A stretch of 54,049 nt of DNA from NCBI GenBank assembly GCA_003971905.1, contig RSEE01000100.1:186001-240049 (forward strand), in the 5' to 3' direction. The DNA comes from Moniliella sp. 'wahieum'. Its lineage: Eukaryota. Position numbers and translations under genes: made by a program. Positions 11,242-52,920 of the stretch are shown piece by piece; within the stretch, counting starts at the first letter, position 1, and each line of letters opens with the position of its first letter. Below the pieces are notes generated by a model. It searched no databases, had not been told where the DNA came from, and was given only the letters and a program-made list of their open reading frames with translations.

Positions 11242-14200
11242 TCAAGCTTCATTTGAGCCCACGGGCTTTGAAGCGCGCTTGAAGGAGAGCCGGCCCAGCA
11301 CTCGGCGGCACCCCGCAAACGGGTTCAAGGAAATGTTGCTGCGCTTAGTGAGCCAGAAGATGGGACAGGCAACGCCTGAAGCAGCGATCTGTCACGAACC
11401 ATAGGTTAGCCTTCTGTACACAGTACACACACGACTGGAGATAACGCACAAAACAAATCAGCACGCCGAATGCAGTCCACGGTAATTGAAGGGCATGTCC
11501 AGAGTCTTGAGGAAATCATCGCCAGTGGCGTACTGGCAGTAGTCACACAAGTCCGTCGCGTTCGGGTTGTAGATCCGGCCGCCGGCCTCGGTAGCCCAAG
11601 CGCCAGCGTACTGCCCACATGTTTGTCCTGGGGGAGGGATAAAGTGGAAGAGATCAGAGCGGGCACACCACTTTCCGACCGTGTAAAATGTTGCCCACTT
11701 GGCCTCGGACGTAATGGGCGATAGGGTTAGCCCAGTACACCGCCTTCCAGATCCCAGGAAGAGAGCATGTGGAATGACGCTGCAAACATGAGGGTTAGTC
11801 ACGATGAAAGCATGTCATGGAACGGCATACTTACACTCCGTTGGCAATAAAGAGCAAGGGAAGGACCAGTGGTACACCCTGGGACGCGATAGTGGCAGTC
11901 GGTGCGGTGCACGCGACGAGAAGGAGAAGACCAAAGCATAAACCGACAGGAGAAGTGTCATAAGGTAGAAGTAGCCCGCCCGCCAGGTTGCCTCGGAGTA
12001 GAATGCAATGTAGAATGCTGGGAGGAAGCTGGAGTAGGAGTCACAGTTAGCGTACGGTAACACAACATATAGTGAGAGAGGACGATAGACGTACTAGACA
12101 GTGGCAGTCAGGGCAGCCAGTGGGAGAGCGAGCGCAATCATGCTCACAATGAGCACCCACCAAGCATAGACCTTGCTTTTGTCCTCGCGAGCATCAAAAA
12201 TGTTGGTCAACTCGAACCAGCGGGCTAGGATACTGTTGATATAAACCGGAATGAAAGCAAAATCAAGATGACGAGGAAGGCCCCTCCTTGCAGCCCATGC
12301 ACATTCCAGTCCATATGAGCGTAGAGGGCGGACCCGACAAACCGGTGAGAAGTATCTGTTGTATAACAAAAAGAGGGTGTGAGCCAACAGTGCACGCAGT
12401 CAACCGAAATCGCAGACATAGGAAACGTACGAGAAAATGAGCGAGTATGTAAAGGAACGTCACGGTAAGCATCCTTGTATTGACGAATGACCACTTCCCG
12501 AATCTGGGTCAAGGCTGGGGCGGCGAATTCGCCGGCCAACTCGGGTTGACAGCATCACCTGCGAACTTGCTGCGACGGCATTCGTTTGTTCGATCATTGC
12601 TTCCACCTCGCGCCGTTCAGGGCTGGCATCCCACACCGAGGACCAGTGTCTCGTGGGTCGCGTGTGGTCGCTGTCAACTCCAAAATATATTCGGCGACGT
12701 TGTCGTTGGGTCACAAGGAGGGGCATTAGCACGTTCGAAATAGGAGCGAATCTTGTTGCTGTTGCGGGAAGCCATAGCCAATGCCTCGTCTTTGCTGTTG
12801 ACCACACCCTGGTCACCAATCTCGCCATTGTACACTACCCCCGGCCACCGTTCTGGAGAAGAAGGCACCGGTCGAATTGCTGGAACAGGTCTCACTGGGC
12901 TGGTGGATGGTGCAAACAATGGCTTGGCCGGACTGGGCCAAACGACGGAGCAAGCGACAGATTGCTGCACGCCCTGCCGAGTCCAGGCCACTGGTCGGTT
13001 CGTCAAGGAAGAAGAGCGAGAGAAGGCTTAGCGGCAAGCTCAACAGCAATTGTCACTCGTTGCGGCGCTCAATGCTCAGACCTGCACCGGGCTGGCCAAT
13101 CAACGCATCCTGCAAATCCTCCAGCTCAAGAAGCGCAAGATCTCATCCACATCGCGCATTTTTGGGCATGCGGAACGGAGTGTGGGCTTCGTAGCACGGC
13201 CGAGAACGCAATTGCTTCCCTCACCGTCTGGGTCGGGAGATGGATGTCACCCTGCATCACGAACCCGACCGTCTTTCCAAAGGATGCAGGCAATGGACCC
13301 CCGTCAACCTCCACCTTTCCTTCCATTTTCCCAAAGTTGATCCGTTGGGCAATAGCGTTCATCGCCGTGGTCTTTCCAGCTCCCGAAGACCCCATCACTG
13401 TCACAAAACGCGTCAGCTTTTCTGTTCCATACAAAGATGTGGGCGCGTACAGCCATAGGAGGAATCAACAAGCAATCATTTCTCCAGCCAGGCCGCGCCA
13501 AGCCAGAAACTTGGTGCAGAAGCTCCCTGCCATTGTCAAGGGTGAGGTTGAGTCCCTCCAAGACAGAACAGGACGGTCGTCGAAGTTCGTCTGCGGAGAA
13601 GGCATGGATCCGGCGTCGTGCGCAAATGAGGAAGACCGGGACGGTACCGGAGTACTGTCGTTATCTGGAATGGAAGACGGGTCTTTCCCTGCTTCTCCTC
13701 CAGGCATTCGGCGTAGCGCGGCGAATAGCCTCCTTGGCCCGCTTGGTGCGGGCGAAGACAGTGACTGAGGCTCCGCTTCCCCAAAATTGTCTCGGAGGCA
13801 ACGAGAGTGACCAACAAGTATAGTGCAGAGAATGCACAGGAAATCCCATGGCACGTCCAAGGTGGTTCAATTTGTAGCCATAGGCCGCCTGTAGGTAGTC
13901 TTTACCCGGCACCACAATCTCCCCGGTCGACTGCAGCCAAGAGACAGGTCTGGTACCGAGCGTCACGGAGCTCTGAGAAAGGGGCAATGGAAGTGGGAAC
14001 ACAGGGGATATTTTCCCGGAAGTTGTTGGCCATCAAAGCTTCAAGAATGTATGCCACATTTCCGACGTATGACAACCACACACCCCCAACCCATCTCACG
14101 GCGGGCTGGACATAGCCACAATAGATGAAGATGACGTTAAGTGCCAACGTGCACCATCTGTTCATGATACAGTCAGCCCCCAAAATACCTGAGAATGACG

Positions 14201-16304
14201 CAACGGAGCAGAAGGATCCAGATACTCACCGGATAGCCTCGCTGAAGCCAGGAGACAATGCACAAAAGGCACGGTACATTTGCGTGATTGCGTAGGTACC
14301 AAAGAACGTCAGAAGCCAAAAGAGGGCCCATGCCTCACCCTTTACGCGCAGATGAGATAGGAAGTACAGCACAACTAGGGGACAGAAGAGTCAGTATAAA
14401 CATGGATAAATGGATCAGACATGAAGTTAATCAACGTACTGCAAAAGGGGGTAATGAGCAGGAAGATGTGAGGGATATCGGCGATGGCACGGGCAATGAC
14501 GGTTGCAGAGGGTCGAGCAAACCCAAATCGTTTGTGGCGGTCGAGAATGGTGCGACCGTTGACAGCAATCCAAACTTCGGAGAGCATTGACCATCCGACA
14601 AAGACCGAGGAGAAGGAAAGGATACCTGCAGCAAGGAACGCTCCCTCCGAATCGTTTTTGGCATTCCAAAAGAGTGATCCAATATAAAGCGGCACGATCG
14701 TAGCGGTGATAAGCTGGATGACATCCCACCGGTTGGCCCACTTCAGCAGCAACTCACGGCGCATGACCGCGTCAACTTGCTTCCAAAAAGGCACAGTAAA
14801 GTTGCTGGCCTTGCGCACCCCGTTGTTCTTCTCGCTACGCACATGTTTCTTGAGTCCATCCGCTTCTTGCATTTGTCCTGCTGTAATCGCACCGAGGTAG
14901 TCCGCATGCTGAGCTTGGAGCTGGGCATAGAGTGGGCTAGCAATCCAAGCAGCCTCACGCGATGCTGAATCCTGCGGCGCGCGTCCTTCAAACCCTTCCC
15001 GCACTACCATCTGCTGCGGATCCGTGACGGCAGTGACAAAGTCGCACGTAGTTTGGCGTGGACCGGCGTAGTAGCCCAAGTCAACAAAGTATTGGCGCAC
15101 TTGGTCGCGGGGGCCGTAGTAAATAACGCGTCCTTGGTCCATGACAGCAACCATGTCAAACTGGACAAGGATACTTTCACTAACCTGATACAAGGTGACA
15201 AGGAGAGTACGCTGCGATACATCTGCAATCAAGCGAAGCGAACGGGCATAGTCTAGCGCCGTGGAGGCATCCAGGCCACGGGTGGTGTTGTCGTTGGCTT
15301 GAACCGCAGCACGGGTGGCCATCGACTCGGCGATGGTCACTCGCTTCCGTTCACCCCCAGAAACACCACGCACCGTCTCATTCCCAACGATGGTGTCTCG
15401 AACGTGGGGCATACCGAACATATCCAGGTAGACGTTGACCAGTTGTTCGATAAACTCTTCCCGCGTCTGGCCCCCACGGGTGGTAGACCGGGGCACCTTG
15501 GACCGCAGAGCGAACCGAAGCGTCTCGGCTACGGAAAGTTTAGCAAAGTGATCATCCTCTTCACCCAGAAAAACGACCTATGTTACCAGAATGGCTGTCA
15601 GTACACTGTCACAACAACCCCTCGCGAAGCCAAAAGAGAAAAGATAGGAGGCCGACGTACCTCGCCACGGAATTTGGTCTGAATCTCCTCGGAGGAGAGG
15701 CCACCGTAAGTGATATCGCCACCCGGAGTGACCGAAGGATCAAGCGAAGAAGTGATGGCTTTGAGGAAAGTAGTACATCCGGATCCAGGGCTGCCGAGCA
15801 CGAGAAGCATCTGTCCCGCACGGAGCAGGCCAGTGGTGGGGTGGATGATGTGAACTAGGTCCTTCCCGCCAGGTGTGAACTTGCGGAGGGGAGGTATGAG
15901 GGTCGATAGAATGTTCCAAGGATCACGCCAGACCGTGTTCCCGATCGCGATGGGCGTCGTCTTGACTAACACACCCCCAGCAACAGCCTTAGCGGGGGCG
16001 ATACGCTCAGGTTGGTCCACGCCACGCCCAAAGGCTTGGTGTCGGTGGGGGACTGATGGCTCTTGGCCAACAGAAATTTGCGAAGGTTGAAGCCGTCCTC
16101 ATTGTCGTTCTCGTCTCCCAATTCAACAGCGTCAGGGTTTGAGCCTGCATGGGAGAGAGTTTGAGCAAGGCTGCGTGCCTCCTGCTCGGCCTCCACTTGC
16201 TCAAGATGAAGGCGTGCCTGAGGAATATCCACTGCGTGAGCAGCGGCTTCGCCCCATGTGCCGTCGACGGCACTTACAGTACGCTCAAGCGCCTTTTCAC
16301 CCAT
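11242..16304 (-). CDS. Full-size PDR-type (ABCG) ABC transporter, NBD-TMD-NBD-TMD, with introns and frameshifts
   Basis: NBD1: degenerate Walker [10 protein letters not shown], signature [25 protein letters not shown]2: [50 protein letters not shown] Cys-rich loops: [24 protein letters not shown]. The stop is placed after ...KPVGSNEA*. Confidence 0.95.
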
Positions 16305-16454
16305 TGTGCGTGCTCAATAGATGTGGAACTCCGTAGGAACCGCAATTTAGGATGAAAGCTTGGGCTTGGCTGAAGGCGCTCAGCCTGGTGGTTTAAGGCA
16401 GCGATAAGCGAGAGGGCTTTTCCTGGACGGTATTCTTCAGCATCGGACCGATAC

Positions 16455-16461
16455 TTATATA
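16455..16461 (-). promoter_or_regulatory. Putative TATA box of the ABC transporter
   Basis: TATATAA on the minus strand about 150 nt upstream of the ATG at 16304. Confidence 0.55.
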
Positions 16462-17252
16462 CCTCGCCTCAATTGGCCTTGATCCTGCGCGAAAAGAAAT
16501 CGCACACTCAGTGGGCCACAAGTCTGGATATAGCGGGTGTAGGCAAGGAGTTATCGCCGATCGCGCCGGTCGACCGTTCGACCCGCCCGGGATGTGCAGG
16601 CGTTAGTATGAAGAAGGGTTCAGCCTGGGCGTTCAGGCTGAGTCCAGGTGTGATGCAATGGAAATATTACGTCGCCACTACTCTTGTCCTTCAGCGCTTC
16701 GCCTTGCCATCAATGATCATCGATTCTCGATCATGCACATGTGCACCTATCGATCATTGACGTTTTTTAATATGTTACACGTGAAACCCGTCAAACATTG
16801 GGCGTTGCACTGACATGTAACAGGCAATCTTCTCCCGCCGGCATCGGCTAGCACTCGGCCTCGGCCTGAAAGGACGCGGACCTCGAACCGCCTGACGCGT
16901 TACCTCGGCGGTTTCTGCCATGTCTTAGATGCATTGGTTCTCCGGATGCCGCCGTACGCTGCACGGGTGCCCCCCCCCAGGGCTTAGTCAGGCTCAATCC
17001 CGGCTCCTGGAACACGGCGATTGCGGACTGTTACAACCGCTCCCCCTCGGTGTTTAGCAGGCGTTGCAGGCGAAGCTGGGGCCTCTGGCCCCGCTTGCAA
17101 AACTTTTCACAGGAGAGGCGCTGTCGATGATAGCATTGTCAAGACATTCCACCCATCCACCATGGGAAAACGAAAACATGCTGTGACCATGACATGTGAC
17201 GGTGAGGCGCCCCTACCGTCTCCTGCCGATGAATGATTAATGAAATTCGACA

Positions 17253-19788: not shown

Positions 19789-22067
19789 TCATCCTCCGCC
19801 TCCACATGCCCTTTCACTAGGCGCGGAGCTTCCGCATCCTCCAGCTCCTACGCTCCCACACTGTCCACGGCCCGCACACGACGCGAATCCGCCTATGGAG
19901 GCACAGCCACCTGAACCACATGAGCCTGCACCCACCCACCACACCACCACAGGTCCCAGCTACGCACCCTCCAGGACATCGCTGTCCACGGCTGCGCACG
20001 CAGGGTTGCCTGCATACATGCCCGAAGCTGATCCGGCCGTGATCCACGGGTCGGGGCGGTAGGGAGCAGCATACGGTACGTACGCAGGATAGATACCCCA
20101 GGCCAACGAGCTGGTCTCCGTTTCGCCCCCCATATGTTCCCGTTTCTCATCCGATGCCGGGACGAAAAAGCAAGCCTCGTTGTGCCGGCGCCGTTTTGTT
20201 GCCTCAGCCTGGGAGAGGAGACGGAGGCGCCTTACGGTTTCTTGTTGTTGTACAATCGCTTCATTCCCCTCGGTCGGGATGGCATTGTGGGCCGAAATGT
20301 GGGGAAAGTGTTTGGGCCGGCTGGGGTGGGTGGCGAGGTGGGCATGGAGCGCATCTGAGTTGCTTTGTGTGAGAGGCTGTCGAGGACGAAAACAAGAGGG
20401 CTGGAGAGATGCGGTTGGTCTGGCCTTCCCGTACAGCTTCGCAGTACCAACAGGTACACTCTGAGTACGGCTGACCATTGGTCAACTTGGTGTATCGCTT
20501 GGCGGTGAGCTCAAATCCATCGCTCAACCTACCCGAGGCGACCTTGTCGTCATGGTTGATCATTCGCTTCATATGGTGCTTCGTGTAGCAGTAGTACCGT
20601 TCCGGCGAGAGTTGGTGGGTGTGCCAGGCCAAGTCAACGTCGAGCGTAGGCACCGCAAGATCCCCCGGATACTGTTTGATAATATTAAGAAAGTGGTGTA
20701 CTTGTTGATCAATCGGGCAATCGTTTGATCCAGTGCAAATGAGTGCAGCCAATCAATCTCGTCCATCTTCCGGACAAATGTACCTTGTCGTAGCACAGCC
20801 CCGACCAAGTCCAGACCAAACGGCGACGAGTTTTCCCAATAGCGCGACATCATTGATCGAATACTGACGCGTCGTACTTTGGCAGTAGCCCGGGTGACGG
20901 GTTGACATTGTCCTACAGCTCGTAGAACCGCTCGGTCCGAGCAGCCCGCCTGGATCACATCACGCACGATGGCCATGGTAATGTGTGGATAAATGCTGAG
21001 ATCGAGCTTCTGAGTGAGCGGGGCTCTGACCCCGTACTTCAAAAAGTTGCTCCCATAGGACTGGAGCATGATTCTTCGGCCGGTGCCTGGAATACGGCCA
21101 TCAACGCAAAGATGGTTCCCGGCATCGCCTCGTCCCACGACTTGAGCTCGCAAAGTCGGCGCGAAACTTTTCCACACGCAGGTCATCGTGGGTGATACAA
21201 GAGCCACAGGAAGTGCAGTGGGTTACCATGTTGTAATCGGTAAAGCCGCGAGTGGCGTGGAACCAAGGTTTGTCCAAGTCGCCCAGTCGCCCCCGGTCGC
21301 CCACGGTACCTCTTGCTCATTCTTGCAGCGTGGACACTTGATTTTCTTACCGGCCTTGTCTTCCTGGTTGCGCCAGGTACATCCTGTGGCCCGTTCAAAT
21401 GCTTCGGCCGCCTCGGCAGGAGGGAGATAATCAAGCGAATCGTTGATGCAGGCATCAATCAGTGCCCAAGGGAAGCCTGCTTTCCACACCTGCATGTGCC
21501 CCGTACGAAGGCAATCTTCAAGATAGATGACGGGATTAAGGCAAAACGCATGCCAGACCATTAGTACATCGAGTGGAGGGAGATTCTGGGTGTTCCACAG
21601 CGGCGAGGCCGACGGCGAGGGGGTGGTATTCATGGCCTTTTCCATGTCAGTGGCCGACTCCACCATCTCCACCGTGAGGACCGTGCATGAGGAGGGTAAG
21701 CAAGCATTCCAAAACCGCTCAAACCGATCTGCCGCTCGCGCCACGTACACCGCCCAGCGCTTTTCTCGCATCAACGCCAAGCCTCTGTTTCGATCGTCCT
21801 GACTCCTAAACTGAAATAGCACGTCCTCATCGCGCAGCCCAAACAGACCATCCACATGGGCAATCGAGTCTCGCAGATCGGCAAAGACAGCGAGCAGGCG
21901 TAAATGGGCAACGCATTCGTCTGCTGTGATGGTCTGTGTGGTGTCGTTGGGGGCGATGCGGGGGAACGTGCGGAGAGGTAATGGTAAGCTGTAGGGCGGC
22001 GGAGGGTCGTCGGGAACTGGGGCGAGGGCGGGGGCCCCTTCTCGGTTTTGGAGGAGGTGGCAGTCAT
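19789..22067 (-). CDS. Glycine-rich domain-containing (GRDP/DUF1399-like) protein, copy 1; frameshifted
   Basis: Motifs: REKRWAVYVARAADRFERFW, LPPLDVLMVWHAFCLNP, SPFGLDLVGAVLRQGTFVRKMDEIDWLHS, AVPTLDVDLAWHTHQLSP, INHDDKV, YSECTCWYCEAVRE, HISAHNA. The Cys/Gly tail ends ...ERACGGGG*. Confidence 0.88.
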
Positions 22068-27145: not shown

Positions 27146-29188
27146 TTAGGACTGAGTCTTTTCTTCTTGCTGGGCATTCAGCGGCATCACAGTGAAGTCA
27201 GCCTCGACTGTTAACCTCGTCTGCTGCTGGGGAAGCAGAGCCATCAGGTTCAGGGTTGAAGCAGAAGCAGAAGCAGACCCCGTCTTCTCCTCAGTTGGAG
27301 CAACAGGTACGGAAATTGTTGTGTCGGCTTGCTCATGTTCTTCCGAACTGGACTGGTCCCGAGGACGAGCAGGAGTACGGGGTAAAGTGGGCGGAGTAGC
27401 AACCGCTGGAGAGGAGGGAAAGCGGGTGTGATGGGCGTCCCGGCCTTTTCATCCTCCTCAGGCACAGTGGCGGGGGAGGTTTGCCTCTTCCTGCGGCACC
27501 CATCAAGCCCAACGAACTAAAGTTGACTCCAAGAGCGTGCGGTGCTGCCTGCCCTGGTACGCACGGGGGTTGGCGGCGGCGGCGCGCCTCCATGTCGAGA
27601 GGAAGGCGTGGGGGACATGCGTCGACGGGGATTTGGTATCGCCAAGCTCTTCGGACGGGACAGCCGTTGTAGCTCTTCGCCACATGGAGCCGAGTTTTGA
27701 AGACCAGGATTCAGTAGGTTGGTGGGTTGGCCTGCCATTTGACGGGTGCAACGTTGGAGCTTCATCTCCCGGTTCGAGGGAGGCAGTAGCATCCACAGGC
27801 AAGGGGGGCAGGTGCAAGCGCGTCCCGTCTTTCTGCCCGTTCCGATCGGACGAAGGCGTGGGCAGGGCAGGGTCGGACGGGGCCTGTTCGGGGGCAAAAG
27901 AGCAATGTACTCCTTGAGAGCTTTGAGACAAACATCAGATGCCCAACGGGCTTCCTTGACCTGATCCAATTCGTCTCGCGTGTTGCCCAATTCGATCCGA
28001 AGCCGTTCCAACTCAGCGCCCCGAGCGGTAAGTTGGGCTTGAAGACGCTCGGTTGTCAGAGTGGATAGGCCGGACGGTAGTCCATCTCCACCAAGCCCGC
28101 CTGTCACGCCTGTACCGAGCATACGGGATCGACGTCGAGCCACATCTGCCGCCTCCTCTACATCGGCAGCAGCACTGGATGAGAGGACAGCGCTTCCCGG
28201 GCGTGGACTGTGTGATGGGAGGAGGTGGTGCTGAGGGTCGGAGAACGGGGACGAACAGAGGGAGCAAAGCACTGAATCCGCTCACGCTGCTTGAGGTTCG
28301 GCGGTGCGCTTTGGCGGAGGTAATGCCAAGACCGACAGGAGGGGAAGCTTCACCCGAAGTGAGAGAGGAGGAGATGCACGCGTAGCAGGGGTGGTGACGG
28401 GCGAAGTGCCACTGATAGTAGGGGTAGTAGATCCGGAAACAGGACTGCCACTGCCAGCGGTCGGGGCGGTGGGTCCCACCCAGCAACGACAGATGCCGCA
28501 GCTTGCGGTCGGTCTGGGAGGATGCAGCGGTGGGGGGAGTAGGGACGTAGCCGGAGGACGTGACAGAAGAAGGCGTGCGCGCGTGGCCAGTGCGGCCGAA
28601 GTTGCGAGCGGCAGCCATGGAGATGGTGCCATTGGGGCCAAATGCAAGCGATGCGCGCTTGGAGGCGCGCTTTGCCCGGGCCTCTTTGGCCTCGGCAGCC
28701 GCTGCGTCGGGATCATCAACCAAAGAGGCTGCAGAGAGGGCGCCAGCAGACGTGAGAACTTGCTGCGAGCGGCGACGTTCAGCAATGGCCTTGCGCATGC
28801 TCTCCCCTTCCTGCTGAAGTTGCATGAATGCGCGGCGCGAGTCGGCCAGCCGCAGACGTAAGTCCCGCACGGTATCAGCCTCGGTCTCGGCCCGCCGCAC
28901 CGCCGCATCCCGCTCCTCACATACACGATCCAGCTGCGCACGCAGCAGGGCGAGCACTTGGTCCTGCTCCTGGCCGTCGTGCTGGGCAGCGGCTGCGAGC
29001 GCAGTATCATCGGCATCTTGGGCGGCGCGGCTGGCGAGGCGGTCATGGGCGAGGGTAGTGGCACTGAGGGTGCGGGCCTGCCAGGCGGCATGGACACGCA
29101 GCGCAGCAATGACGTGACGCAGCTCGTCGGGGCTGTCGCTGCTGTCTGCGTCGGGGGTGGGGAAGGGAGGAGCGTCGGCGGACGACAT
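27146..29188 (-). CDS. Hypothetical coiled-coil protein with low-complexity linkers
   Basis: Long minus-strand ORFs 28013-29269, 27517-28272 and 27503-27931 with heptad-like segments (LRAQLDRVCEERD...LRLRLADSRRAFMQLQQE; LERLRIELGNTRDELDQVKEARWASDVCLKALKEYI). The first ATG is MSSADAPP and the stop is placed after ...NAQQEEKTQS*. Confidence 0.75.
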
Positions 29189-30071
29189 GGGCGGGGAGGG
29201 CGTGGCCGAGGAGTAGCTGCACGCTGCGTTGCGTTCCAGAGGTGGTGTTTGCTCTGTCGAGGCAGCCACGGGGAGCAGCAGGGGGCGCCGCAGCCCGTCG
29301 GCCAGCCACGGCGCCTATCACGCATTGTGCGTCTGCATCATCCGCGCGTCACCGACTGAGAAAATACTCACCGGCCATCCGCATCCCACACCGCGTGGAG
29401 CAGGCGCCATTCCAGTGTGCCTTTTGGTTAGCGCACCGGCCCTGTGCCTCTGCACGCGAGCATTCGCCTCTGGGAGCCTCTCGCCTGCCTCTGCTTTTCC
29501 TTGCTCGTTTCAAATTTGCTTTTAGCTTTCACCGGTCACCGGTCACCTTCCGCTTAGACCTTCCATCTTTCATCTTCCCTCTGTCAAGTTGCGCATTTCA
29601 AATTGCGCATTTCACCCCCTCGCAGATCGCGCATCCACTGGCCTCTTGTCTTGTCTACAGGGAGACGGCGCTCCAGTCCGCCCCCACCCCACATCCGAGA
29701 TGGCTGACCCGCTCCGAGCCTCCCTGCCTGCTTTCTGCCCCCCAAGCATCGACCTGCACGTTATCGTCCCAACCTAGAGCCTACCCTATTATGTGTTAGG
29801 CATGCCAGGTCCAGAGAGCAGAAGCAAAAATGTCCGTGCGAATGATATTAGGACGTCGGCAGGGTGGTATGGCCAGCCAACACAGAACACCATATATACG
29901 CGTCTCTGAGGGCACTTCCCACCATTACCAACCAAAACGACCCAGGGAAGTCCCGGGGGAGGGGGGAAAAGAAAAAGACAGACAAGTCACAAATCAACAT
30001 CCTAGCTGCACAACATATCCATGCCCCGCCCCTCCTCCGGCGCACACCCAGCGTAGCAGCAGCCGTACGGA

Positions 30072-30572
30072 TCACAACCAGGGAGATACGGAACTGCATC
30101 TCGAGGTGGGCTTGCATGTCTTGAAGTAAGAAATGGGTAGGGCCAGTCCAGTGAAGCTGGAAACACCTACCACGTTGGAAGCAAAGCAAACTTTGCTCGG
30201 CTCAAACACTGACCGCACATCGCCCTCGACAGAATGGAACCACTTCCCAACATCCCGCTCGGCCACAGCCCCTGTCGCAGCCGCCGGAGCACGCTTGTGG
30301 AAGACGGAGGAAGCCTTGGACACGTCACCCTTAACGTCCGATCCGATCGACTTGAAAAGTCACCGATTCCGCGCTCTTGGCCAGCGGCGGTCGCCTGAGC
30401 CGGCGCAGCGTACGCTAATACGGCATTCAACCGTGCCGGTAGGTTAGATTCATCCGTCACCAGAGAAGCGCGAGCGCCAAGCAGGAAAAAGAAAGGAAAG
30501 AGAGGTCAGAGAGAGTTGCAACGTACCGGCCGACGCGCCAAGGGCGAGGAAGGCGAGGATAGAGAGACGCAT
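30072..30572 (-). CDS. Small secreted protein, putative Kex2-processed two-repeat propeptide; 3' end uncertain
   Basis: Signal peptide MRLSILAFLALGASAAYA, split by an intron at 30526-30415 (GTACGT..CTAAC..TAG). Adding one T to the T4 run (plus strand 30355-30358) gives APAQATAAGQER-GIGDFFKSIGSDVKGDVSKASSVFH-KR-APAAATGAVAER-DVGKWFHSVEGDVR. Confidence 0.72.
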
Positions 30573-31381
30573 TGTAGTGTTGGGAGTACAACGGGGTAGG
30601 GGAGGGAGAGGTACTGAGTGTAAGGGAGATGAAAAGGTGGAGGTGAGAAGGGAAGAGGAGACGGCAACGCAGAGCGAGTGGAAAGAGGGGGAATTATAAG
30701 AGCGAAGCTCAACCCTAGCAGGCCCCAGGGCGGTTTCTTGTTCGTAACGCGTAACGTTCGCCCGAGGAGCCACAGATGGGCCGCTCTGGGTGCTCGCTCG
30801 CGTCGGGAGCGCAGGACGGGGGCAGTATGCAGACGGGCCAGCCACAGCCAGCGGCAGGTCTGATAGGTCTTGTAGCTGCCGCCCCCTCGGCCTCATGGGT
30901 GCATGGGGTAACTATCAGCACATCAGCACATCAGTCAGCCATGCGATCAGCGACGCGAGCGACGCCGGTGCTAGAACCGGGGGAGGCGTCTGATGCATGA
31001 TGTCCTTGCCCTGCCACACAGGATGGGCTGAAGCCGAGCGGGGGTGGGCGAGCGGGCGGTGAACCTGGGAGCGAGAGCTGGGGAAGCGCAAACGGGGCCA
31101 TGACGCAAATTGCGTCATATTTCACATATGAAAGTTTCATGTCAGTGCCTTAGGCCTTAGGCCTTACGGACCTTGTGGCGCCGATGCACCACTTCCTCTT
31201 GATCTAATGCTGCTTCTTGTTGGTGGCCACTGAGTGCCCGATTTCAAGCCGGCTGGGGGGAAGAAAACTATACACTTAACCGTTTTGAAGACCCCCGAGA
31301 CCCACAGGTTCCCGTGCAAGTCACCGGGACTAGTCCCTTGGTCACCTCAGAGGCGCCCTCAGACCACGCTCACTTGTACTA

Positions 31382-31428
31382 ACAGTTGAAGGTTGAACTT
31401 CAACGTTGAACGTTGAAGCTTGAACCTT
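31382..31428. repeat. 7-bp lattice array ACAGTT-g-AAGGTT-g-(AACTT-c)-AACGTT-g-AACGTT-g-AAGCTT-g-AACCTT
   Basis: Read directly. One unit is 1 nt short. The units at 31402, 31409, 31416 and 31423 are in exact register. Confidence 0.85.
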
Positions 31429-31802
31429 CTGGCTCCGACTAAGAACACTACATTCGTCTCATCGGTAGAGCTGAAGGTAGGAATGCCCATTTCGATCATC
31501 GATCATTGCACAAACAAACGCTGCGCCTATCAGGCCCTCAGGTGTAAGATGTAAGACTGCTCCATGTCTCTGCAGTCTAGGACAAGATTCGGAAGAATCA
31601 CATACAGGTGTGGCCGACGAAGACCTGGTAGCTCTCCGAGGTAAGTTTGGACGTTAGGTGCGGGGCACTGGGCGCTGGATTCAGTCGCCAAGGGTGGAGG
31701 AGGGGGGGGGGGTGGAAGGTACAAAAGATAGGCTCAAGCAGATTTTCGTAGTGTGGGAGAGCATCTACAGCGAAATGGAGCAGGGGCGAAAGGAAAGGAA
31801 AG

Positions 31803-31839
31803 GGAAAGCGGAAAGCGGAAAACGGAAAACGGAAAACGG
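31803..31839. repeat. Heptamer tandem (GGAAAGC)x2(GGAAAAC)x3 downstream of LAS17
   Basis: Read directly at 31803-31837. Confidence 0.9.
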
Positions 31840-32024: not shown

Positions 32025-33531
32025 TTACCAATCGTCTTCAGAATCCTCATCGTCCGAATCGCCCATTTGACCTTTACGTTGGTTCAACGCCTGAGCCAAA
32101 GCGTCTGCCAAGCGGCCGGGGACTCATCTCCGCCCCGGCAGCTGCGCCAGCGGCCACCCCAACCGCCCCACCCGCCGCAGCACCCGCTGCTACCCCACCA
32201 GCATTCGGGCCGGGTGTCTTCTTCAAATCGCGAATGGACTTGCCTTGAATACTGGCCAATAACGCGCTCCGCCCATCTTGCGGCGGCGGCAGGCTGGCTA
32301 GTGTGTTGCCGCCACCAGCCGCGGGTGCCGGGGGAGGCGGAGGCGGAGGCGGCGCGCCACCTGCTGGAGGCGGCGCGGTGGGGGCGGCGGTGCACCCCCC
32401 ATTGGAGGAGGCGGAGGAGGCGGTGGCGCTCCCCCAGTCGGGCTGGAGGCGGACGAGGCGGAGCAGGAGGACGCGAAGCTCCGCCGGCCCGGGACCCGGG
32501 TGGAGGTGGCGGTGGCGGGCGGTGCGGCACCTCGAGAGGCCTTCTTGCCTCCGCCCAGTGGAGGGACGGCGAGAGGCAGAGGGAGGGCAGGCGCAGGTGG
32601 AGCTGGTGGCGGCGGAGGCGCAGATTGAGCAGGTGCCGGGGGTGGGGCGGGGCAGCCGGAGCAGCGGGAGGGGGAGGGGGCATCGTCCTCGGGGCACGTG
32701 GGGCCGCAGGCGCCGGCGCAGGCGGCGGAGGAGGAGGGGACGGGGTATGGTACTGCACCGCTGGGACTGAAGCAGAGGCATGGTGGTCGTCCGAGTGGTG
32801 GGTGCGACTGGTGTGGGGCATCAAAGGGTTGCCCAGGAGCCCCTCCAGCTGCCCCCCCCCTGTCGTGGGTATGGTTGGCTGAGTTGGTACGGCTGTGGCC
32901 CCCCGTAGGTTCGAAAGCAACGATGGTTCCGACCCTCCCTTCTCACCCGATCCCGAGGAGCCGCCAGTCTTGATCACGAGTGCTTCGAGCATGTCGTGGA
33001 AATGTTCAGGGTGGCCCGCTGTGCTATTGGTGTGGGGGGCAGAGGCGCCGCGTCCGAACAGTTTCTTGAGCGTACTACCACCAGACGCCTTGGGCTTAGC
33101 TGAAAGGGGGTTAGTAGGAGAATGGTGAAGCGAGAAGGGGAAAAAAACGTACCATACTTTTGCTTGTTGCCAATCTTTTTGGCCAACACTGCAGCTTCGG
33201 CTTCGTCGGCAAAGGCAAGGCCGACGAAACACTCGTCGCCCTCGAACGTATGGAAAAAGGTGCGGTCCACATTGTAGACAAAGCCCTCGTACATCTCCTG
33301 TTCCCACACCACGCCGCGGGAACCCAAGTCGACGAGCTTGAGGTAGAAGGTGGAGCGGTCATAGTCACGCACAAAGGCAACAACGCCCTCCAAACCAGTG
33401 AAGTTCCAGGCGGCAGAGACCTGGGGCGGGGCAGCGTACAGACGGGCTACCGTGGCAGTCACGATCTTGGCGCCGTCTGAAGGCACCGCCGCCTTGACGC
33501 GGTTCTTTTCGGCAGTGGTAAGGGTGGGCAT
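32025..33531 (-). CDS. LAS17: WASP-family actin nucleation-promoting factor (WH1, proline-rich, WH2, acidic)
   Basis: WH1: KIVTATVARLY..VVWEQEMYEGFVYNVDRTFFHTFEGDECFVGLAFADEAEA. Poly-Pro region, then WH2 DGRSALLASIQGKSIRDLKKT, then an acidic end ...DSDDEDSEDDW*. Intron at 33152-33100. Confidence 0.95.
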
Positions 33532-33781
33532 GGATGGTGGATGCGGGTCCAGAAGGCGAGCGGCAACGCAAGCGCCGCCCTGGCTGCTTGCCTGCGGCGT
33601 GCTACGCAGCACCGCTCGCCAGCCCCGCGGGCGCAGGAGAAGGATGACATAAGACAGTGGCCCTGTGCGCCCAGCCCACGCAAACCCACTGGGCCATATG
33701 CAACCCTGAATCTACCTATCAGCGCAGCAGCCTTCGCAGGCCATGGCCGCGCTTGCAATTTCAAGCGCCCCGTCCCCGCTC

Positions 33782-35341: not shown

Positions 35342-37608
35342 ATGCCCTCCGAGACCGCCTCTTCCCCTCCCCCGCCCTCTGGCCCAGGCGAAGCTCCTCC
35401 GGCCTACGCCCCGCACCGCCGCACCTTCCCCCACATCGCTGCCAGCGACACCTCCAAGACCGTCACGCCTGACGAATGTGTTGCTCACTTGCGTCTGCTC
35501 GCTGTCTTTGCCGACTTGCGCGACTCGATTGCCCATGTGGATGGCTTGTTTGGGCTGCGGGACGAGGATGTGCTGTCCAAGTTTGAGAATGAGGACGATC
35601 GCAACAAAGGCCTCGCGTTGATGCGGAGAAACGGTGGGCGGTGTATGTGGCGCGAGCGGCCGATCGGTTCGAGCGATTTTGGAGTACTGCTTGCCGTCAT
35701 CGGGGCCTGTGATCACAGTGGACACTGTCGACCATCCCACTGGTTTGGCCGATGCCATGAAGAGTACCAGGACATCATCCGACCCGCCACTGTGGACCAA
35801 GAACAACTTACCGCCCCTCGACGTGTTGATGGTCTGGCACGCGTTCTGCCTCAATCCAATTACCTATCTCGAAGACTGTCTCCGTACGGCCCACATGCGG
35901 GTATGGAACGTGGGGTTCCCCTGGGCTTTGATTGACGCCTGCATCAACGATTCGCTCGATTACCTCCCTCCCGCCGAGGCGGCTGAGGCTTTCGAACAGG
36001 CTACTGGCTGTCTCTGGCGCAACCAACAAGATGAGAGAGGCAAGAAGATCCAGTGTCGCGCTGCACACAACAGCAGGAAGTCCCCTGGGCCACCGGGGGC
36101 CCTTGGGTAAACTCGAAAAGCCGTGGTTCGATGCTACCAAGGGGTTTACCGATACGAACTTTCTTGTTAACTGCGCGTCATGCAGCTATCGCATCACGCA
36201 CGATGATCTGCGGATGGCCAAGTTCCGTGCCGATTACAGTCAACTTTCGACGGCCAAGGTTGCCATGCCTGGGACCATTCTCCCGTTTGATGGGCATCCG
36301 CCGCACGAGCCGTCGATGGTGATGCGACAGTCGTATGGGAGCCACTTTTTGTTGGACGGGGTCCCAATGACGTTGGGAGAAAAGCTCGACTTCAATGCCT
36401 ACCCCCACCTTACCATCAACGACGTGCGGTATGTGCTCGAGAAAGGGTGCGCCTCTCGTGCGACGCTACGTAAGGTAGGAGGCTCCCAACCAGTCCGGCG
36501 GGATGTGGCCATTGCACGGCGCGTCAGCATTCGGTCCATGATGTCGCGGTACTGGGAAAATTCGTCTCCGTTTGGGTTGGACTTGGTGGGGGCCGTGTTG
36601 CGCCAAGGAACGTTTGTCCGCAAGATGGACGAGATTGATTGGTTGCACTCGCCTGCATTGGACCAAACCATGACGCGTCTGATCGACAAGTACTCAGTCT
36701 TTCTCTTGATCATGAAGAAGTACCCTGGTGACATGGCGGTGCCGACGCTTGACGTCGACTTGGCCTGGCACACGCATCAGCTCGCCCCAGCACGGTACTA
36801 TTGTTACACGGTGCACCATATGCAGCGGATGATCACCATGACGACAAGGTATCCTCAGGTCGGTTGAGCGATGCGTTTTGAGTGACGTCGAAGCGCTATA
36901 CCAAGTTGACCAATGGTCAGCCCTACTCGGAGTGTACGTGTTGGTACTGCGAAGCGGTCCGGGAAGGCCAGACCAGCCGCGTTTCACCTGCCCTCTTATT
37001 TTCCCCTCCACCGCCTCGCACGCACGAACCAACTCGGACGCTCTCCATTCCAATCCCAACGTCCACCATGACAATCCCGAACGCAACGCCCACATCTCGG
37101 CCCACAACGCTGTGCCGACCGAGGGAGACCGTGCGGCGTTGCGCAAAGAAGAAGTACGCCATCGTCGGCTCGTATCCAAGGCCGAGGCTGCCCAACGGCG
37201 CTTGCACAAGCGCGGCTTACTTGTCGCCTCGCCCGACGAGAACGCAGGCGGGGCGAGTCGGAAGCCACCGCGATGGCCTGGGGCATCTACCCGATCTACA
37301 TGCCCTACTACGCCCCTTACTACCCCGACCCATGCATCACGCCGGCTCAGGATCGGGCATGTACCCGTGCAACCCTGCGTGTGCTGCCATGGGCGCCGGA
37401 AGTGTGGGCGCATGTGTGGCGGGGCCTGTGGGGGTGCTGTGGGCGGGGCGGGTGTGGGAACGGTGGTGCGGCTCGGTGGGTGGATTCAGCGCGTGCTCCT
37501 CAGCTGGTGGATGTGGGAGCGGAGCGGCGGCGGTGGATGCGGAGGCGGAGGCGTGGCGGTGGATGCGGTGGCGGTGGCGGAGGAGGAGGCGGGTGCGGGG
37601 GATGCTGA
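35342..37608 (+). CDS. Glycine-rich domain-containing (GRDP/DUF1399-like) protein, copy 2; frameshifted
   Basis: Motifs: ECVAHLRLLAVFADLRDSIAHVDGLFG, LPPLDVLMVWHAFCLNP, LDLVGAVLRQGTFVRKMDEIDWLHSP, VPTLDVDLAWHTHQL, YSECTCWYCEAVRE, HISAHNAV. The tail is ...GGGCGGGGGGGGGCGGC*. It is colinear with copy 1. Confidence 0.9.
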
Positions 37609-42500: not shown

Positions 42501-44605
42501 GATTGAACTGGCCCTAGAAAAGTTTGGTATCCCTCAAGGTGTTGTTGAAGGAGGAGATGAGGAGGAAACCAGGCGGCATGGTGATGAGGAGGACGAGGTG
42601 ACGATCCCTTATGGCTTGACGCTTGACACTGGCGACAACGAGCAGCACCTTCGCCCCAACTCGGTAGTATATGAGGCGTTCCCATCGCCCCCTGCTCTGC
42701 GCAACGTTGCACGCGACTCGTCCAGCGGAATGGATCGTCGAAGCTTGGATAAGCACGATGCTCACCATCCTAGCTGACATGCGCAACACCGACCCTGTCC
42801 TTATTCTCCGACAACAACAGCACATTCAATCGAGCCTCAGTGCACCCATCAGTCGTACCGCTCGGGCTTGGAGTCCGACCGAGCGGGCGTTGGCGTCCAA
42901 GCGCGATGCCCAGCGTAGGAGCCAACTCGAATGGTTCGGACCTACTCTGACTCGATGATGCGGGATGCGGGGAGCAGCGAGACCAGTATGCGGGACCCTA
43001 ACAAGGCAGTCTCTAGCTCGTCTCCCTTGGGCCAGGAGGCACCACAGCCTCCCACTCAGGCTTCCAATGAGCAGCCTCATTCCGCCACGGCGCAAGAGCG
43101 GACACATGAAATGATCGTGGCTCAGCGTGCTAAAGCTCGTGCTTTGGCACTTGAAGCGGCGGTGGTGCCAGCACGGCTGCTGTTGCTTCCTCGGCACGGG
43201 GAGAGAATCGAGAAGCCAATACTGTTGACCAGGATCCCACCAACTTAGGTCGTGACCCTTTTGCTTCTGACGACGACGAAGGCGACGATATCAATGTCAT
43301 CCTGGACCATGTGATGGACGGAACGGAGGAGGACACGCATGGCTCGTCCCCCCGTCCTTCCTCCCAGGACATGGGCTTTGCTTCGATTGCAGCCATGACA
43401 CACAAAGCGATGTGGGTGAGAGGAGAGCTCTGCCTTACCTTCTGGCCACATTTCCGATCATGCTACCGAGGTGGACATCCCCACTTCTGCTCTGGAACCT
43501 GTCGCACCACTCACCCCCCGTCGCCCTCCTCTTCCAGGGTCCGGGACGGGCACACGAGAACTGTTGACGGAACCAAATGAGGCAAAACAGGGTGAGGACA
43601 GGTCTGCTGCCACGTCGGTCCTGGATGTGCCAGGCGCATACACCTCTACTTCGGCCAGCCCCGCCCCGAGTTCTACTCCTGGTCAGGAGGACGCGCACGC
43701 CGGGACTGTGGCGGCTGGTGCAGGCGCTTTGGCCGCTGGGGCGGCTGCTGGGGTGGCGGCCGTAAGAGCGGCGGCGAGCCCCTCGCCTCCCTCTGCGTCT
43801 GCTTCGGTCTGCTTCGGCGCCTCCTTCGGCGCCTGTGCCAATGTCTGGATTGGGGAGCACACGCAGTGTCTCCAACCCTGTTGTTCGAACGCCCCGCCCA
43901 CCAGCTTCGCCGGTCACCGCGTCACGCATTCGGGCGGGTCAGGCTCGATTCGGTCACAACAGGTGATGTCGCCGTCCTTTGCTTCCCCGCCCAACTCTTC
44001 TGCTCCGTCCCCTATCTCAAGTCGCATAACACCTGTCACTGCGCCGGCCGGATCCGTTGGTCATCGGCGGACTTTGAGTTCACAAGGCGGTGTCACCAAG
44101 ACCGACATCTCGACCCCTCCCCCTTCGGATGGGACCGGTCGTCGCTCAGGGGCTGGGAGCACGCTGGGCCCGCTGAGCCTAGACCATCTGTATGCCGTGA
44201 TGGACGCGGCTGCTCACCCGTCCGTGCGACCAGGCAGCGCCGTTTCGCTGTCCAAGCGCGACTCGCGCAGCTTTAGTGGGACTAGCCGGCGCATCTCTCG
44301 AATGGTAGAGATGACCCCGACACTTGGGTGGTCCTCCACCTTCTCGGACGGCGCCTGGCCCGACATTCAGTCGATCAAGGCCGAGCAAGCGCTACAAGTC
44401 GGCGGAATGGGCGGACCAGAGGCGATGCTTGTCCATCTATTTGCCCCGCCCCTGAGCACCGTGGTCACCCTGGCCTCGCCCAATGGCGCAGGCACGGGTG
44501 TCGCCTCCCCCCATCTCGGCGCGGTACCTGCAGATGGACAAGGACCTGAAGCAGGTGGACCAAGCATTGGACCAGCTACTGGTTGACGCGCTGCGGCTTG
44601 CCTAA
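39599..44605 (+). CDS. tea4: SH3-domain cell-end marker, Tea4/Bud14 family; frameshifted
   Basis: SH3 region: DENIDFDLVYALHNFIATVEGQA..LLDDSNSYW|WLVRVLPTQEVGYIPAENIESPFERLARLNKHRN. PP1-docking-like KSTVMF. RA-like segments (VLRVFAAP, TTTVAEAIELALEKFGI). The C-terminus is KQVDQALDQLLVDALRLA*. Confidence 0.9.
40724..41180 (+). repeat. CAG/CAA-rich polyglutamine-coding tract within tea4
   Basis: Dense CAA/CAG runs, e.g. QQQQYFQWNQQQQTQQQQMQQQQQQQ. Confidence 0.85.
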
Positions 44606-45063
44606 CTCGCCAGGGCGTAGCTATCCGAGCCAATGTTGTGCCATGGCCCTTTTCCTTATGTAGCGCCGTCGTATCGTGTTTTGTCTGTTCTTCTCCCATG
44701 GCTATGTATGGATTTCATCCACCATCCGACGATGTGGAAGTAGTTGAGGATGTCGGTATATGAGGGGGGATTGTGTCGGCTCTCATCTTCGGGAAGCACA
44801 GAAGAATCACGAGACCATAACCTGCGCCTTGGGTGGACGCCGCGCGCACGGGCCAGTCATCGCGTCATCTGCATCATCGAAGGGGGCAACGCAGCATGGG
44901 GCCAGTGATCCGGGTGCAATTTCAATGGCGACCCACTTTGCTGTTTTGCGCGCTGGGCGAGTACCGTATTTGCAGCAGCAATTGCCACCTCTGCTGTCTG
45001 TTCCCACCGCCACCGCCACCACCGTCATCGCCCCCATCGCCGCCCTCGCCATTCCCTGCTCCC

Positions 45064-48000
45064 ATGCGTGCTGAGGGAATGCGTTTGGCTGCCCGCGCGG
45101 CCCGTACGCCCCTGGCTGCGTCGGTGTCCGCTGCTCGTAGTGGCGTCGGCGTCGGCCTTGGCGCCTTGCGCCCCACTCCCACATCTTCGCGCGCCGCATC
45201 TGCTTTCTTTGCGCGTCCTGCCCGTTCCCCGCTTCTCACCGTCCGCCCACGTCCCATGGGTGCACCCTTTCCGCTCACATCTCCCGTCATGCGACACATG
45301 AGTGTGCGCGCAATCAGCTTCCGCTTTGTTCCCCGCTTCGCCTTTCGTCTCCTCCGCCTCCCCGCTGCGCTTGGCATCACAGGGGCTGGGGTTTTGACCT
45401 ATGCCAGTGGTAAGCTTGATGACGCACGTGCCAGGTTGGAGGAGTACTATCTCCTTGCCGAGGGTATGGCCGCTCAGGCGATCGGTACAGCTGGTGCGTG
45501 GACCTCTGAGGCTCAAGCCCAATTTGGTGCTTGGGTCGACTCTCTCGACTTCACTGCGGCCCAGGAAGCCCGAGACGAGTGGATTGATCTCGCTAGCTCG
45601 ATGCGTGAGCGGGCGCACAACTTCTTTGCAAGCCTGGGAAGCACAGACGAATCTGGCTCAGGTGCCAACTCCTCCGGTTCCTCTTCGTCTTCCTCTGGGC
45701 CTGGGGGCAAAGGCCCAGCAGCTGCGTTGGCTGCCTCTCTTTTTGCCAAATCGGGCGAGGAGGAGCAAGCGGGTGAGGATGATGAAGAAGCTTTCGACTC
45801 GGAAGATAGCGCTGCAAGTCTGATGCACCTCACACGTCAGTTGATCGAGGTGCGCAACATCCTCAAGACGATTGATCATACCGGCGAAGAGATTGCTCTT
45901 CCCTCGATTGTCGTGATTGGCTCCCAGAGCAGCGGCAAGAGCTCGGTGCTGGAGGCGATTGTGGGTCATGAGTTTTTGCCCAAGGGATCCAACATGGTTA
46001 CCCGTCGGCCCATCGAATTGACCTTGATCCACACCAAGGCGACGGGTAAGAAGGGGGACGTGGTGGAGTACGGTGAGTTCCCTGGTACGGGCTTGGGCCC
46101 GATTCGTGACTTCCGTCAGATCCAAGAGCACTACGGGATATGAACTTGGCTGTGCCTAAGGAGCAAGCCGTGTCGGACGTGCCTATCGAACTCCACATCC
46201 ACTCACCCCACGTGCCCGATCTGAGCATGATCGACCTGCCCGGCTACGTCCAGGTGGCTGGGATGGATCAACCAGATGAGTTGCGGGAAAAGATTGAGAA
46301 ACTGTGCGAGCAGTACATTGCTCCTTCGACCAACAATGTGATCCTCGCGGTTTGTGCGGCAGATGTGGACTTGGCCAACTCGCCTGCGTTGCGGGCCAGC
46401 CGTAAGGTCGACCCACTTGGCCTTCGCACCATTGGTGTGATCACCAAGATGGACCTTGTTCCCCCCGAAGTGGGCGCATCGATTCTTTATGGCAATCGGT
46501 ACCCTCTTGCGCTGGGCTATGTGGGTGTGGTAGCCAAAAACCCAGTTTCTCCTATTAAGAGTCGGTTGGCCCGCAGCCATCTGCGGTCGGGCGTGTCGTC
46601 GTTGACTGGCTCGGTGGAACAACAAGAGGATGACTTTTTCGCCCAGAACGCGGTGGCGTTCCAGCCACCGCTTAAGGGGCGGCACGCTGGCGTAGAGCCA
46701 CTGCTAGGTACGGACGCCCTTCGGCGGAGGCTGATGTCAGTGCTGGAAGAGAGCATGGGGTCGAGTTTGCAAGATGTATCAACGGCGGTGCAGATGGAGC
46801 TGGAGGAGGCGGCATATGCATTCAAGGTGCAGTACAATGACCGTGCCATCTCGGCCGAGGCGTATGTTGCCGAAACGATCGATGCGCTCAAGCACCGTCT
46901 CCAGCTACTTGCCGATCAACTGGGCAAGCCTCAAGCCCGTGCACTGCTAAAACATGCCTTGGACGAAAAGGTTCTCGACATTTTGGCTCAGATGTACTGG
47001 TCTGACACGTACCCTTGAGCTGTGCGCCGCAGGGGATGCCAAGATGCTCCCTCCACCCAAAACGGCCGAGGACAAGGAGAAGATTGACGCCGCGTTGGAT
47101 CGGTACTGGACGTACAAGCTGGATGCGTCGACCTCAGCCCTGACCAAGGCCGGCATTGGTCGGCTCAGCACTCAGATTGTTGTGGATGCGATCCGGGCAG
47201 AGTTGGAACGGCTGCTCGTTTCCGAGCCGTTTGCGTACCACCAGTCCACTGCCGAGCGGATCGAGGCATTGGCGGCGGGCATTCTGCGGGAACGGTTTAC
47301 GCTAACGGCGGATCAGGTTGAGAATGCAATCAAGCCGCTCAAGTACGAAGTGGAGATTGAGGATCGGGACTGGGACGCGGGACGCGCCGATGCAATGACC
47401 CTCTTGCAACGGGAACTGGACATGTGTTCTGAAGCGGGCAAGCGTCTCCGGTCCACGATCGGCAGGTCGCGCTTGAATGCAGCGGTGAGCCATGTGAAGG
47501 AGTTGGACGAGCGGCAGCGGCAACGTGCCGCCGCTCGCTGGCGGGCGATCAAAGAACGTTCGGCCCCCCAGACACTGCTCCTGCCGTCGACGAGGACGTG
47601 GAGGCCGACGACCCTCTTCGCCCCGACTATAACGCCGCTTTACTCGGAAAGGCCCGCGAAGCCATTTTCCTCGATGCTCGGGCTGACATCCTAAAGAGGC
47701 GGTTAAAGTCATTGGGCTCCAAGCGATGCAAGGCCGGACCTGGGGTACAAAGTGATGCGTACTGCCCCGAGACGTTCCTCAATGTAGTGGCGGACAAGTT
47801 GACCTACACCTCGGTCATGTTTATCAATATTGAGTTGCTCGCCGAGTTCTTCTACCAGTTCCCGCGCGAGCTAGACACGCGCCTGGTCCAGGAGTTGAAC
47901 CGCGGAGAGGTGGAGTCGTTTGCGCGGGAGAACCCGGTGGTGCGGGATCACCTGGATCTGCAAGGACGCAAAGAGAAGCTGGAGCTGGTGCAGGAGAAGC

Positions 48001-48080
48001 TCGACTCGCTCCTCCATCTCTACCAGGGCAAGACGGTACCATTGCGTTCGCAGCCCAAGTCCAAGTGGTCCTTTTTCTAA
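45064..48080 (+). CDS. MGM1: Mitochondrial dynamin-like fusion GTPase
   Basis: Motifs: [104 protein letters not shown]. Arg-rich presequence. An alternative start is at 44925. Confidence 0.97.
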
Positions 48081-48580
48081 AGCCCAGCTTTGCTTTGCTG
48101 GCATAAGCACCCTGATGGCATTGCATCCGTGCTTGTTTCTGCCCTTCCTCCACGCACTGCTTTGCCAGTCACACCCTCCCTACTCTTTGCAAGGTTCTCT
48201 GTTCCCTTCGGACACGCCCTTCCCTCGTCTGCTTCTCGTCTTCCCCTCTCTCCGTTTTCACGGCCATACCACGTCTATACATATCCTTCTTCTGAGCTAT
48301 CTGAGGCCGCAGCTGCACACATATAGAGGGCATGGAAGGCTCGAAAGACCAAATGGCCGTCTTCTGTATTCCGCCAGGAGCATCCTTTTGGGGTAGGCGT
48401 CGAAGCCGGGCAACGGGGGGAGGGACGCGTGCAACGGGAATCCCAGAGACCCCGTCTGGGAAAGAATGATAGGGGCAGGTGCACCGAGGTGGGCCGAATA
48501 AATGCAAGGACCACGCTGACCAATTTTGCCGTATCTCTCTCGTTGTCCACCTGAGGAAGGGAGACCGAGGGACACACTCT

Positions 48581-52873: not shown

Positions 52874-52920
52874 AAGCCTTAGGCCTTACCGGTTACCGGT
52901 TACGGATTACCCCGGTTACC
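52874..52920. repeat. 7-bp lattice array AAGCCT-t-AGGCCT-t-ACCGGT-t-ACCGGT-t-ACGGAT-t
   Basis: Units start at 52874, 52881, 52888, 52895 and 52902, followed by degenerate CCGGTTACC. Confidence 0.85.

Follow-up and report, generated by a model that had tools for sequence, protein, structure and literature searches.

Kex2-processed repeat proteins of fungi (KEPs) have been catalogued in several screens. In Le Marquer 2019, a KEP had to give four or more fragments at KR/RR or KK and to contain three repeats (PMC6339444), and in Umemura 2020 it had to have at least three repeats bounded by dibasic sites (PMC7329392). The automated screen of Vogt 2022 set a minimum of two sites and three pieces similar to each other, and a manual RADAR screen was added to it (PMC9769878). 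Most KEP-derived peptides are described in the last of these papers as having no known function (PMC9769878). In Ustilago maydis, Rep1 is a precursor of 652 aa whose 12 repeats are set off by Kex2 sites; the peptides that it yields are 35-53 aa long and assemble into amyloid-like fibrils (PMC4617103, PMC3133707). According to PMC8528282, Kex2 requires Arg at P1, tolerates Glu among other residues at P2 and prefers an aliphatic residue at P4. Cleavage after a single Arg was observed when KEPs of Coprinopsis, a basidiomycete, were expressed in Pichia (PMC9769878).

The gene analyzed here lies on the reverse strand of a DNA stretch of 54,049 nt, called the window (C100:186001-240049), in an assembly of 69.5 Mb and 223 contigs. 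It is almost certainly a real gene, for a putatively secreted precursor, that has been under selection. The best explanation of its sequence is a functional two-exon gene with a product of about 86 residues, organized in two modules that each consist of a spacer ending in ER followed by a predicted helical core. Our preferred reading, to which we assign a probability of roughly 0.4, is that this product is a Kex2-type precursor that would release neutral, surface-active helices. A sequence-only reading had pointed to a hidden secreted precursor with two modules and amphipathic cores, and this is supported by the signal-like N-terminus (judged by eye), the intron and the modules, which are all in place. 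We also agree with it that the gene is hidden from annotation, as the frame breaks within the gene at the T run 30358-30355.

The gene shares with KEPs the signal-like N-terminus, similar repeated modules between Arg-ending sites and linear cores free of Cys. It differs from them in having two repeats instead of three or more, one unconserved dibasic site, a monobasic ER as the conserved site and, for each core, a pro-spacer of its own of 12 aa. Judged on this layout, it is a gene that would work like a KEP but lies outside the published criteria, with too few repeats and one dibasic site. The KEP architecture proposed earlier thus stands as a layout of a known fungal kind, but not as membership in the class so defined. 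All three automated KEP screens would miss the gene, while the manual RADAR screen of Vogt 2022 might not.

With the Rep1 repellents and the Hum3 repeats, the gene shares the design of a secreted precursor cut into amphipathic peptides, the cutting and the surface role here being proposed ones. Compared by description only, it differs from Rep1 in its size of about 86 aa and in its two predicted helices, one of 17 and one of 25 aa. No named relatives of the gene came up in the protein searches (word-index, HMMER). In K2PP effectors, as here, the signal peptide is followed by a pro-region that is short and disordered and has a non-canonical site of the xxER type at its end; they release one folded domain (PMC8528282), whereas here the pro-region is duplicated along with a predicted short helix. 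In precursors of the alpha-pheromone type, the spacers are made up wholly of X-A/X-P dipeptides (STE13; PMC9769878, PMC6339444), while the 12-aa spacers here follow this pattern for no more than their first one or two dipeptides.

Gene structure and coding sequence

A second copy of almost the whole window is present on contig C141 (53,195 nt aligned, with 1,614 substitutions and 697 indels). Further paralogs were sought in the assembly, and repeated searches returned the same two places, the window locus and the C141 copy. The features of the gene are listed in Table 1.

Table 1. Features of the putative precursor gene, in window positions
Feature	Positions	Strand	Description
TATA box	30693..30698	-	TATAA starts at 30698, 126 nt 5' of the ATG; same in the second copy; putative function
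Exon 1	30527..30572	-	46 nt (15 codons + 1 nt); ATG at 30572 in ACAATG context; most of the putative signal peptide
Intron	30415..30526	-	112 nt; GTACGT donor, pyrimidine tract, CTAAC branch at 30447; the sole AG is the acceptor
Exon 2 start	30407..30414	-	End of the putative signal peptide; A-x-A site before residue 19
Spacer 1	30371..30406	-	12 aa; starts with AP, ends with ER; rich in Ala/Thr/Gly; not amphipathic
Core 1	30297..30370	-	25 aa, the break counted as one unknown residue; predicted amphipathic helix; net charge 0
Frame break	30355..30358	-	T run in both copies; probably a systematic assembly error
KR	30291..30296	-	Only dibasic site of the gene; the homolog has a single Arg after His
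Spacer 2	30255..30290	-	12 aa; starts with AP, ends with VAER
Core 2	30204..30254	-	17 aa; predicted amphipathic helix; charge -1 (second copy -2); SVF end
Stop position	30201..30203	-	Probable; a stop in the second copy, whereas the window sequence reads on
3' stretch	30072..30200	-	Probably 3' untranslated, outside the protein

There is a C/T-rich leader after the TATA box, ahead of the ATG, whose sequence context is a strong one for a start codon. The hydrophobic run encoded in exon 1 covers residues 3-13, with a Kyte-Doolittle mean of 2.43, and Arg2 is present. The secretion signal was judged by eye from Arg2, the hydrophobic run and A-x-A, and has a typical look; the -3/-1 rule is the basis for placing signal peptide cleavage at A-x-A. 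The canonical intron seen by the sequence-only reading was confirmed at the sequence level (30526-30415, with the GTACGT donor, CTAAC and a single AG), and its donor, branch and acceptor are identical in the second copy. The two spacers, the two cores and the KR junction of that reading were all recovered at the positions it had given them.

With the break counted as X, modules 1 and 2 align with a score of 56; shuffled sequences average 18.6, and none of 10,000 shuffles reached 56. When the spacers were aligned alone, 37 of 10,000 shuffles scored as high, and the similarity between the cores alone is weak (458/10,000). Both copies carry two modules, and the homolog fragment described below has one and a half.

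On the comparison of both copies and the homolog, the coding sequence is one of about 86 codons that ends near 30204, about 130 nt short of the gene drawn earlier. That gene extended to 30072 because the frame of the window remains open. This was not borne out, as the second copy stops directly after core 2, at the residues where the homolog also ends. The T run that closes core 2 differs by one base between the copies, and in the second copy the stop comes right after SVF. A possible second donor (GTCAGT near 30213) had also been suggested, but the second copy differs there and a second intron is not needed. The length of about 86 codons therefore follows from the stop of the second copy, the end of the homolog and the unconserved donor at 30213. 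Beyond the stop, four of the seven changed codons are synonymous in the same frame, which speaks weakly against an untranslated 3' stretch.

Homolog and sequence searches

A HMMER search of 1.84 billion protein representatives gave four matches, and one homolog, P0006, was kept. It is a fragment of 43 aa with 58% identity (E 2.2e-5) in which the order of spacer, ER, core and SVF end is maintained, and it is known only from Logan contigs (one member, six contigs). No other outside homolog was found in our searches. The remaining three matches (P0004, P0005 and P0007) were dropped, being long repeat proteins with scores summed over repeats. Word-index protein searches with the window piece at near lengths returned no match; with P0006 at longer lengths they returned two candidates, none of which scored, and with the alignment A2 two candidates, P0006 being the only relative. 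A2 has three rows and leaves out the first five residues of core 1.

None of three queries matched Pfam at E<=10. The PDB profile search with A2 (E<=10) gave no peptide match and one chance match to a nanobody (E 0.62), and two queries of the ESM Atlas gave no usable match. None of the 21 viral contigs scanned had a match. In a metagenome scan, one of 415 pattern matches passed (L013) and was rejected as a chance hit in AT-rich DNA that has neither signal nor repeat context. A search for the peptide words in the literature and in two supplements found none; the Umemura tables apparently list accessions and not sequences. The peptide family looks undescribed in the literature searched, which was mainly open-access, and the sequence tables in KEP supplements may bear on this.

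The frame break at the T run

In the assembly, the spliced stretch that begins with the ATG and ends with core 2 is 257 nt long, which is one nt less than a whole number of codons. The change of reading frame at the T4 run that had been noticed before was confirmed at 30358-30355. The accompanying claim, that the same type of error occurs throughout the window, agrees with our count of indels between the window and the second copy, 439 of 697 being 1 nt long over the 53,195 aligned nt. Codon changes and homology indicate that the frame break is very likely an assembly error. Downstream of the break, as far as core 2 extends, the copies differ at six sites, and five of these changes are synonymous in the restored frame, against one and none in the other two frames (P=0.007 for five of six at a neutral rate of 0.27). 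Upstream of the break there are two changes between the copies, one of them synonymous and the other from Ala to Thr in the putative signal peptide. If both copies had inherited a real frameshift, it would be older than their split, and the downstream stretch would have been left unselected. The five synonymous changes of six thus suggest that selection persisted after the copies split, which such a frameshift would preclude. In addition, core 1 and the last core of P0006 can be aligned through the break point with no gap (score 50, reached by 0/10,000 shuffles).

Other genes of the window served as controls. In nine gene stretches, the copies differ by 1.2-22.5 frame-shifting indels per kb (introns included). 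In Mgm1, choosing the longer allele at each gap yields a single frame of 1009 codons; none of the three breaks of the window is common to both copies, and nine runs of five or more bases survive. Shared errors are thus a minority. They do occur, however, in the PDR-type ABC gene, in which an A run near 13160 shifts the frame of both copies, CDR1 residues 890-967 being found in one frame and 970-1054 in another. This favors the error reading, although the control gene could be a pseudogene. In the N-terminus of Mo25, two C-run shifts are apparently common to both copies (by eye).

If the break were real, the gene would have been recently disabled in both copies, or another product would be made through the unshifted frame or by alternative splicing. 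The identical T run in both copies, the unshifted frame that stays open to 30169 and the lack of shared errors in Mgm1 are in line with this. We nevertheless regard it as very improbable, since the unshifted frame makes only one of the six changes synonymous and the homolog aligns across the break point. A rescue of the frame by splicing was tried and rejected: a GT donor was available in none of five one-intron models and none of 12 two-intron models, all of which need non-consensus GC donors.

Helix pattern and charge of the cores

The hydrophobic moment at 100 degrees is 0.383 for core 1 (97/10,000 shuffles), 0.492 for core 2 (228/10,000), 0.456 for core 2 of the second copy (248/10,000) and 0.550 for the last core of the homolog (17/10,000). 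The best helical angle of the cores is 96-104 degrees, and the moments of the spacers are 0.10 and 0.15. Core 2 and the homolog have hydrophobic residues at positions 2, 5, 6, 9, 13, 16 and 17, all at most 60 degrees from one axis. Core 1 repeats the pattern of core 2 with an insert of seven residues, and all of its hydrophobic residues lie within 64 degrees of one axis. Seven extra residues correspond to two turns, so that the helical register is kept. AlphaFold, run on the three rows of A2, predicted helices at 4-21 and 30-50 around a disordered spacer, at low confidence (mean pLDDT 59).

The side-chain charge is 0 in core 1, -1 in core 2, -2 in core 2 of the second copy and -1 in the homolog. 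The partial first core of the homolog, which is without its N-terminal half, has a charge of +2. About 41% of the residues are hydrophobic in core 2 and in the homolog. Each core of the window has one His, Cys is absent from the cores, and the SVF end is kept across modules and in the homolog. The sole amino-acid change within the cores between the copies is the loss of a Lys.

The cores had earlier been compared to antimicrobial peptides (AMPs) and to magainin. With magainin 2 they share a predicted amphipathic helix of similar length that starts with Gly. Matched by eye, the first eight residues of magainin 2 agree at five of eight positions in core 1, four of eight in core 2 and two of eight in the homolog. 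Magainin 2 has a net charge of +3/+4 (PMC8107365), and it and the cationic helical AMPs differ from the cores in this charge (0 to -2 here) and in their animal origin, with no homology found. The comparison was not upheld: it is weak because the cores carry a net charge of 0 to -2, and the likeness is lost in the homolog. As far as the sequences tell, the resemblance to magainin is convergent amphipathicity and no family trait.

The nearest physicochemical analogy is with the phenol-soluble modulins (PSMs) of staphylococci, which are bacterial and made without a signal peptide or Kex2 processing; no sequence match to them was found in the PDB and Pfam searches. What they share with the cores, as a physicochemical analogy only, is amphipathic helices of about 20 aa with surfactant properties (PMC4244807). 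The idea that the gene is the first member of a tiny fungal precursor family, cut at ER/xR into charge-neutral helical surfactants as a counterpart of the PSMs, is rather doubtful.

Proposed processing of the precursor

ER directly precedes the helix in all three spacers (two in the window and one in the homolog). The P4 residue is aliphatic at one of these three sites (VAER), the others having Gly and Gln. ER is a plausible non-canonical Kex2 site, as had been suggested before, with ER in 3/3 spacers and Glu among the residues described as tolerated at P2 (PMC8528282). The KR that was thought to join the modules is present at 30296-30291, but the homolog has HR there, with a single Arg, and KR is not conserved. 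Core 1 is closed by Arg in both the window sequence and the homolog. Cleavage into free cores is probable on the placement of these sites.

A single kexin was found in the assembly (L014, C165:23614-26874), with 67-72% GC and one copy, whereas the locus of the candidate gene has about 58% GC and two copies. Given these differences in GC and copy number, the kexin may belong to another component of the assembly, which may hold more than one organism. A peptidase of the DPPIV type is found on C73, with GC like that of the window. No DUF3328/UstYa, the gene expected near a dikaritin RiPP precursor, was detected among 31 window sequences scanned; the genome search gave 0 matches, and its control was also silent.

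Proposed function and alternatives

In the preferred reading, the signal peptide would be removed after residue 18, Kex2 would cut after the ER of each spacer and after KR, and Kex1 would trim KR. Two Cys-free peptides of 25 and 17 residues would be released. They are predicted to fold as amphipathic alpha-helices, with a face of Phe, Trp, Val and Ile opposed to a Ser/Gly face with balanced Lys and Asp. These peptides may coat hydrophobic or neutral-lipid interfaces, such as the boundary between cell wall and air, leaf wax or lipid films, as surfactants or repellents. With neutral to slightly acidic cores, interface coating is the most likely use, and not cationic killing. If the peptides are cleaved, the odds of a surface-active role are about even; this role is deduced from physicochemistry alone, the Pfam and PDB searches having given no sequence link to surfactant or repellent peptides.

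The same gene and processing could instead supply membrane-lytic or antimicrobial peptides, in the manner of candidalysin, which is a cytolytic peptide from a KEP (PMC9769878). A length of 17-25 aa, a clear helical amphipathicity and the N-terminal resemblance to magainin 2 (by eye) would suit this, and PSMs of the alpha class, of about 20 aa, are described as damaging membranes (PMC4244807). It is unlikely, considering that the charge of the cores is 0 to -2 against a mean of +2.5 for >1000 frog AMPs, and their hydrophobic share about 41% against 48-56% in frog AMP classes (PMC7459754). Moreover, the change between copies within the cores removes a Lys, and the A2 profile has no peptide match in PDB at E<=10. 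The cores could also be ligands, hormone- or pheromone-like, of a fungal or host receptor, and here the conservation of the SVF end across modules and homolog, the X-P/X-A dipeptides at the beginning of the spacers and the pheromone-like layout known in basidiomycete KEPs (PMC6339444) are suggestive. However, the STE13 signature is limited to the first one or two dipeptides per spacer, no receptor-like family was found in 28 other ORFs of the window that were scanned, and the polar face varies while the helical register is kept, which suits an interface better than a receptor pocket. A signalling role thus seems improbable to us. A last alternative concerns processing itself. The product may remain uncut at ER and act as a secreted protein of ~68 aa, or as two halves split at KR, with two helices and flexible, perhaps O-glycosylated linkers. 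The non-canonical nature of ER, the lack of an aliphatic P4 at two of the three ER sites, the unconserved KR and the Thr in the spacers would be compatible with such a product. The position of ER exactly at the start of the helix in 3/3 spacers and the Arg that closes core 1 in both sequences make it quite improbable, and this placement of ER and Arg is the pro-peptide pattern described in PMC8528282.

A conserved and selected precursor with two modules that relies on ER suggests that the KEP-like class is larger than catalogued. If the more far-reaching idea of a fungal counterpart of the PSMs is true, such precursors would be invisible to KEP screens based on dibasic sites and three repeats, and smut-related fungi would have one more surface-active system in addition to hydrophobins, the amyloids of Rep1 and glycolipids. 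As a counterweight, the layout is familiar, the family so far comprises one locus and one outside fragment, and the role is a predicted one. The cores are short enough to synthesise, so that it would be cheap to test whether they are surfactants, lytic peptides or signals.

Genomic neighborhood

A Pfam scan of the window found ordinary fungal genes around the candidate: OPT, ABC, Mo25, FtsJ, a WH1 protein, an RA-domain protein, Mgm1 and MATE. The candidate gene is flanked by a gene starting near 29314 and by the WH1 gene (about 32050-33550). Two ORFs of the downstream neighbor at 27520-29337 (-) were scanned, and neither matched Pfam. Scans for exact repeats and for bacterial promoters were uninformative. 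Intergenic tandem arrays of 7 bp are present on either side of the gene (29529-29547, 29560-29582, 31147-31166, 31385-31425, 31492-31506 and 31799-31839). The PDR-type ABC transporter gene at 12400-17000 has several frame breaks, that near 13160 being present in both copies. The stretch 44585-54049 of the window has 98.5% identity to the second copy (L010), with 99.8% in the MATE gene, compared to 87-96% elsewhere; loss of heterozygosity, or reads shared near contig ends, are possible explanations. The stretches 19935-22033 and 35419-37589 form an inverted pair of paralogs with about 72-73% identity, of a gene with a GRDP-like domain.
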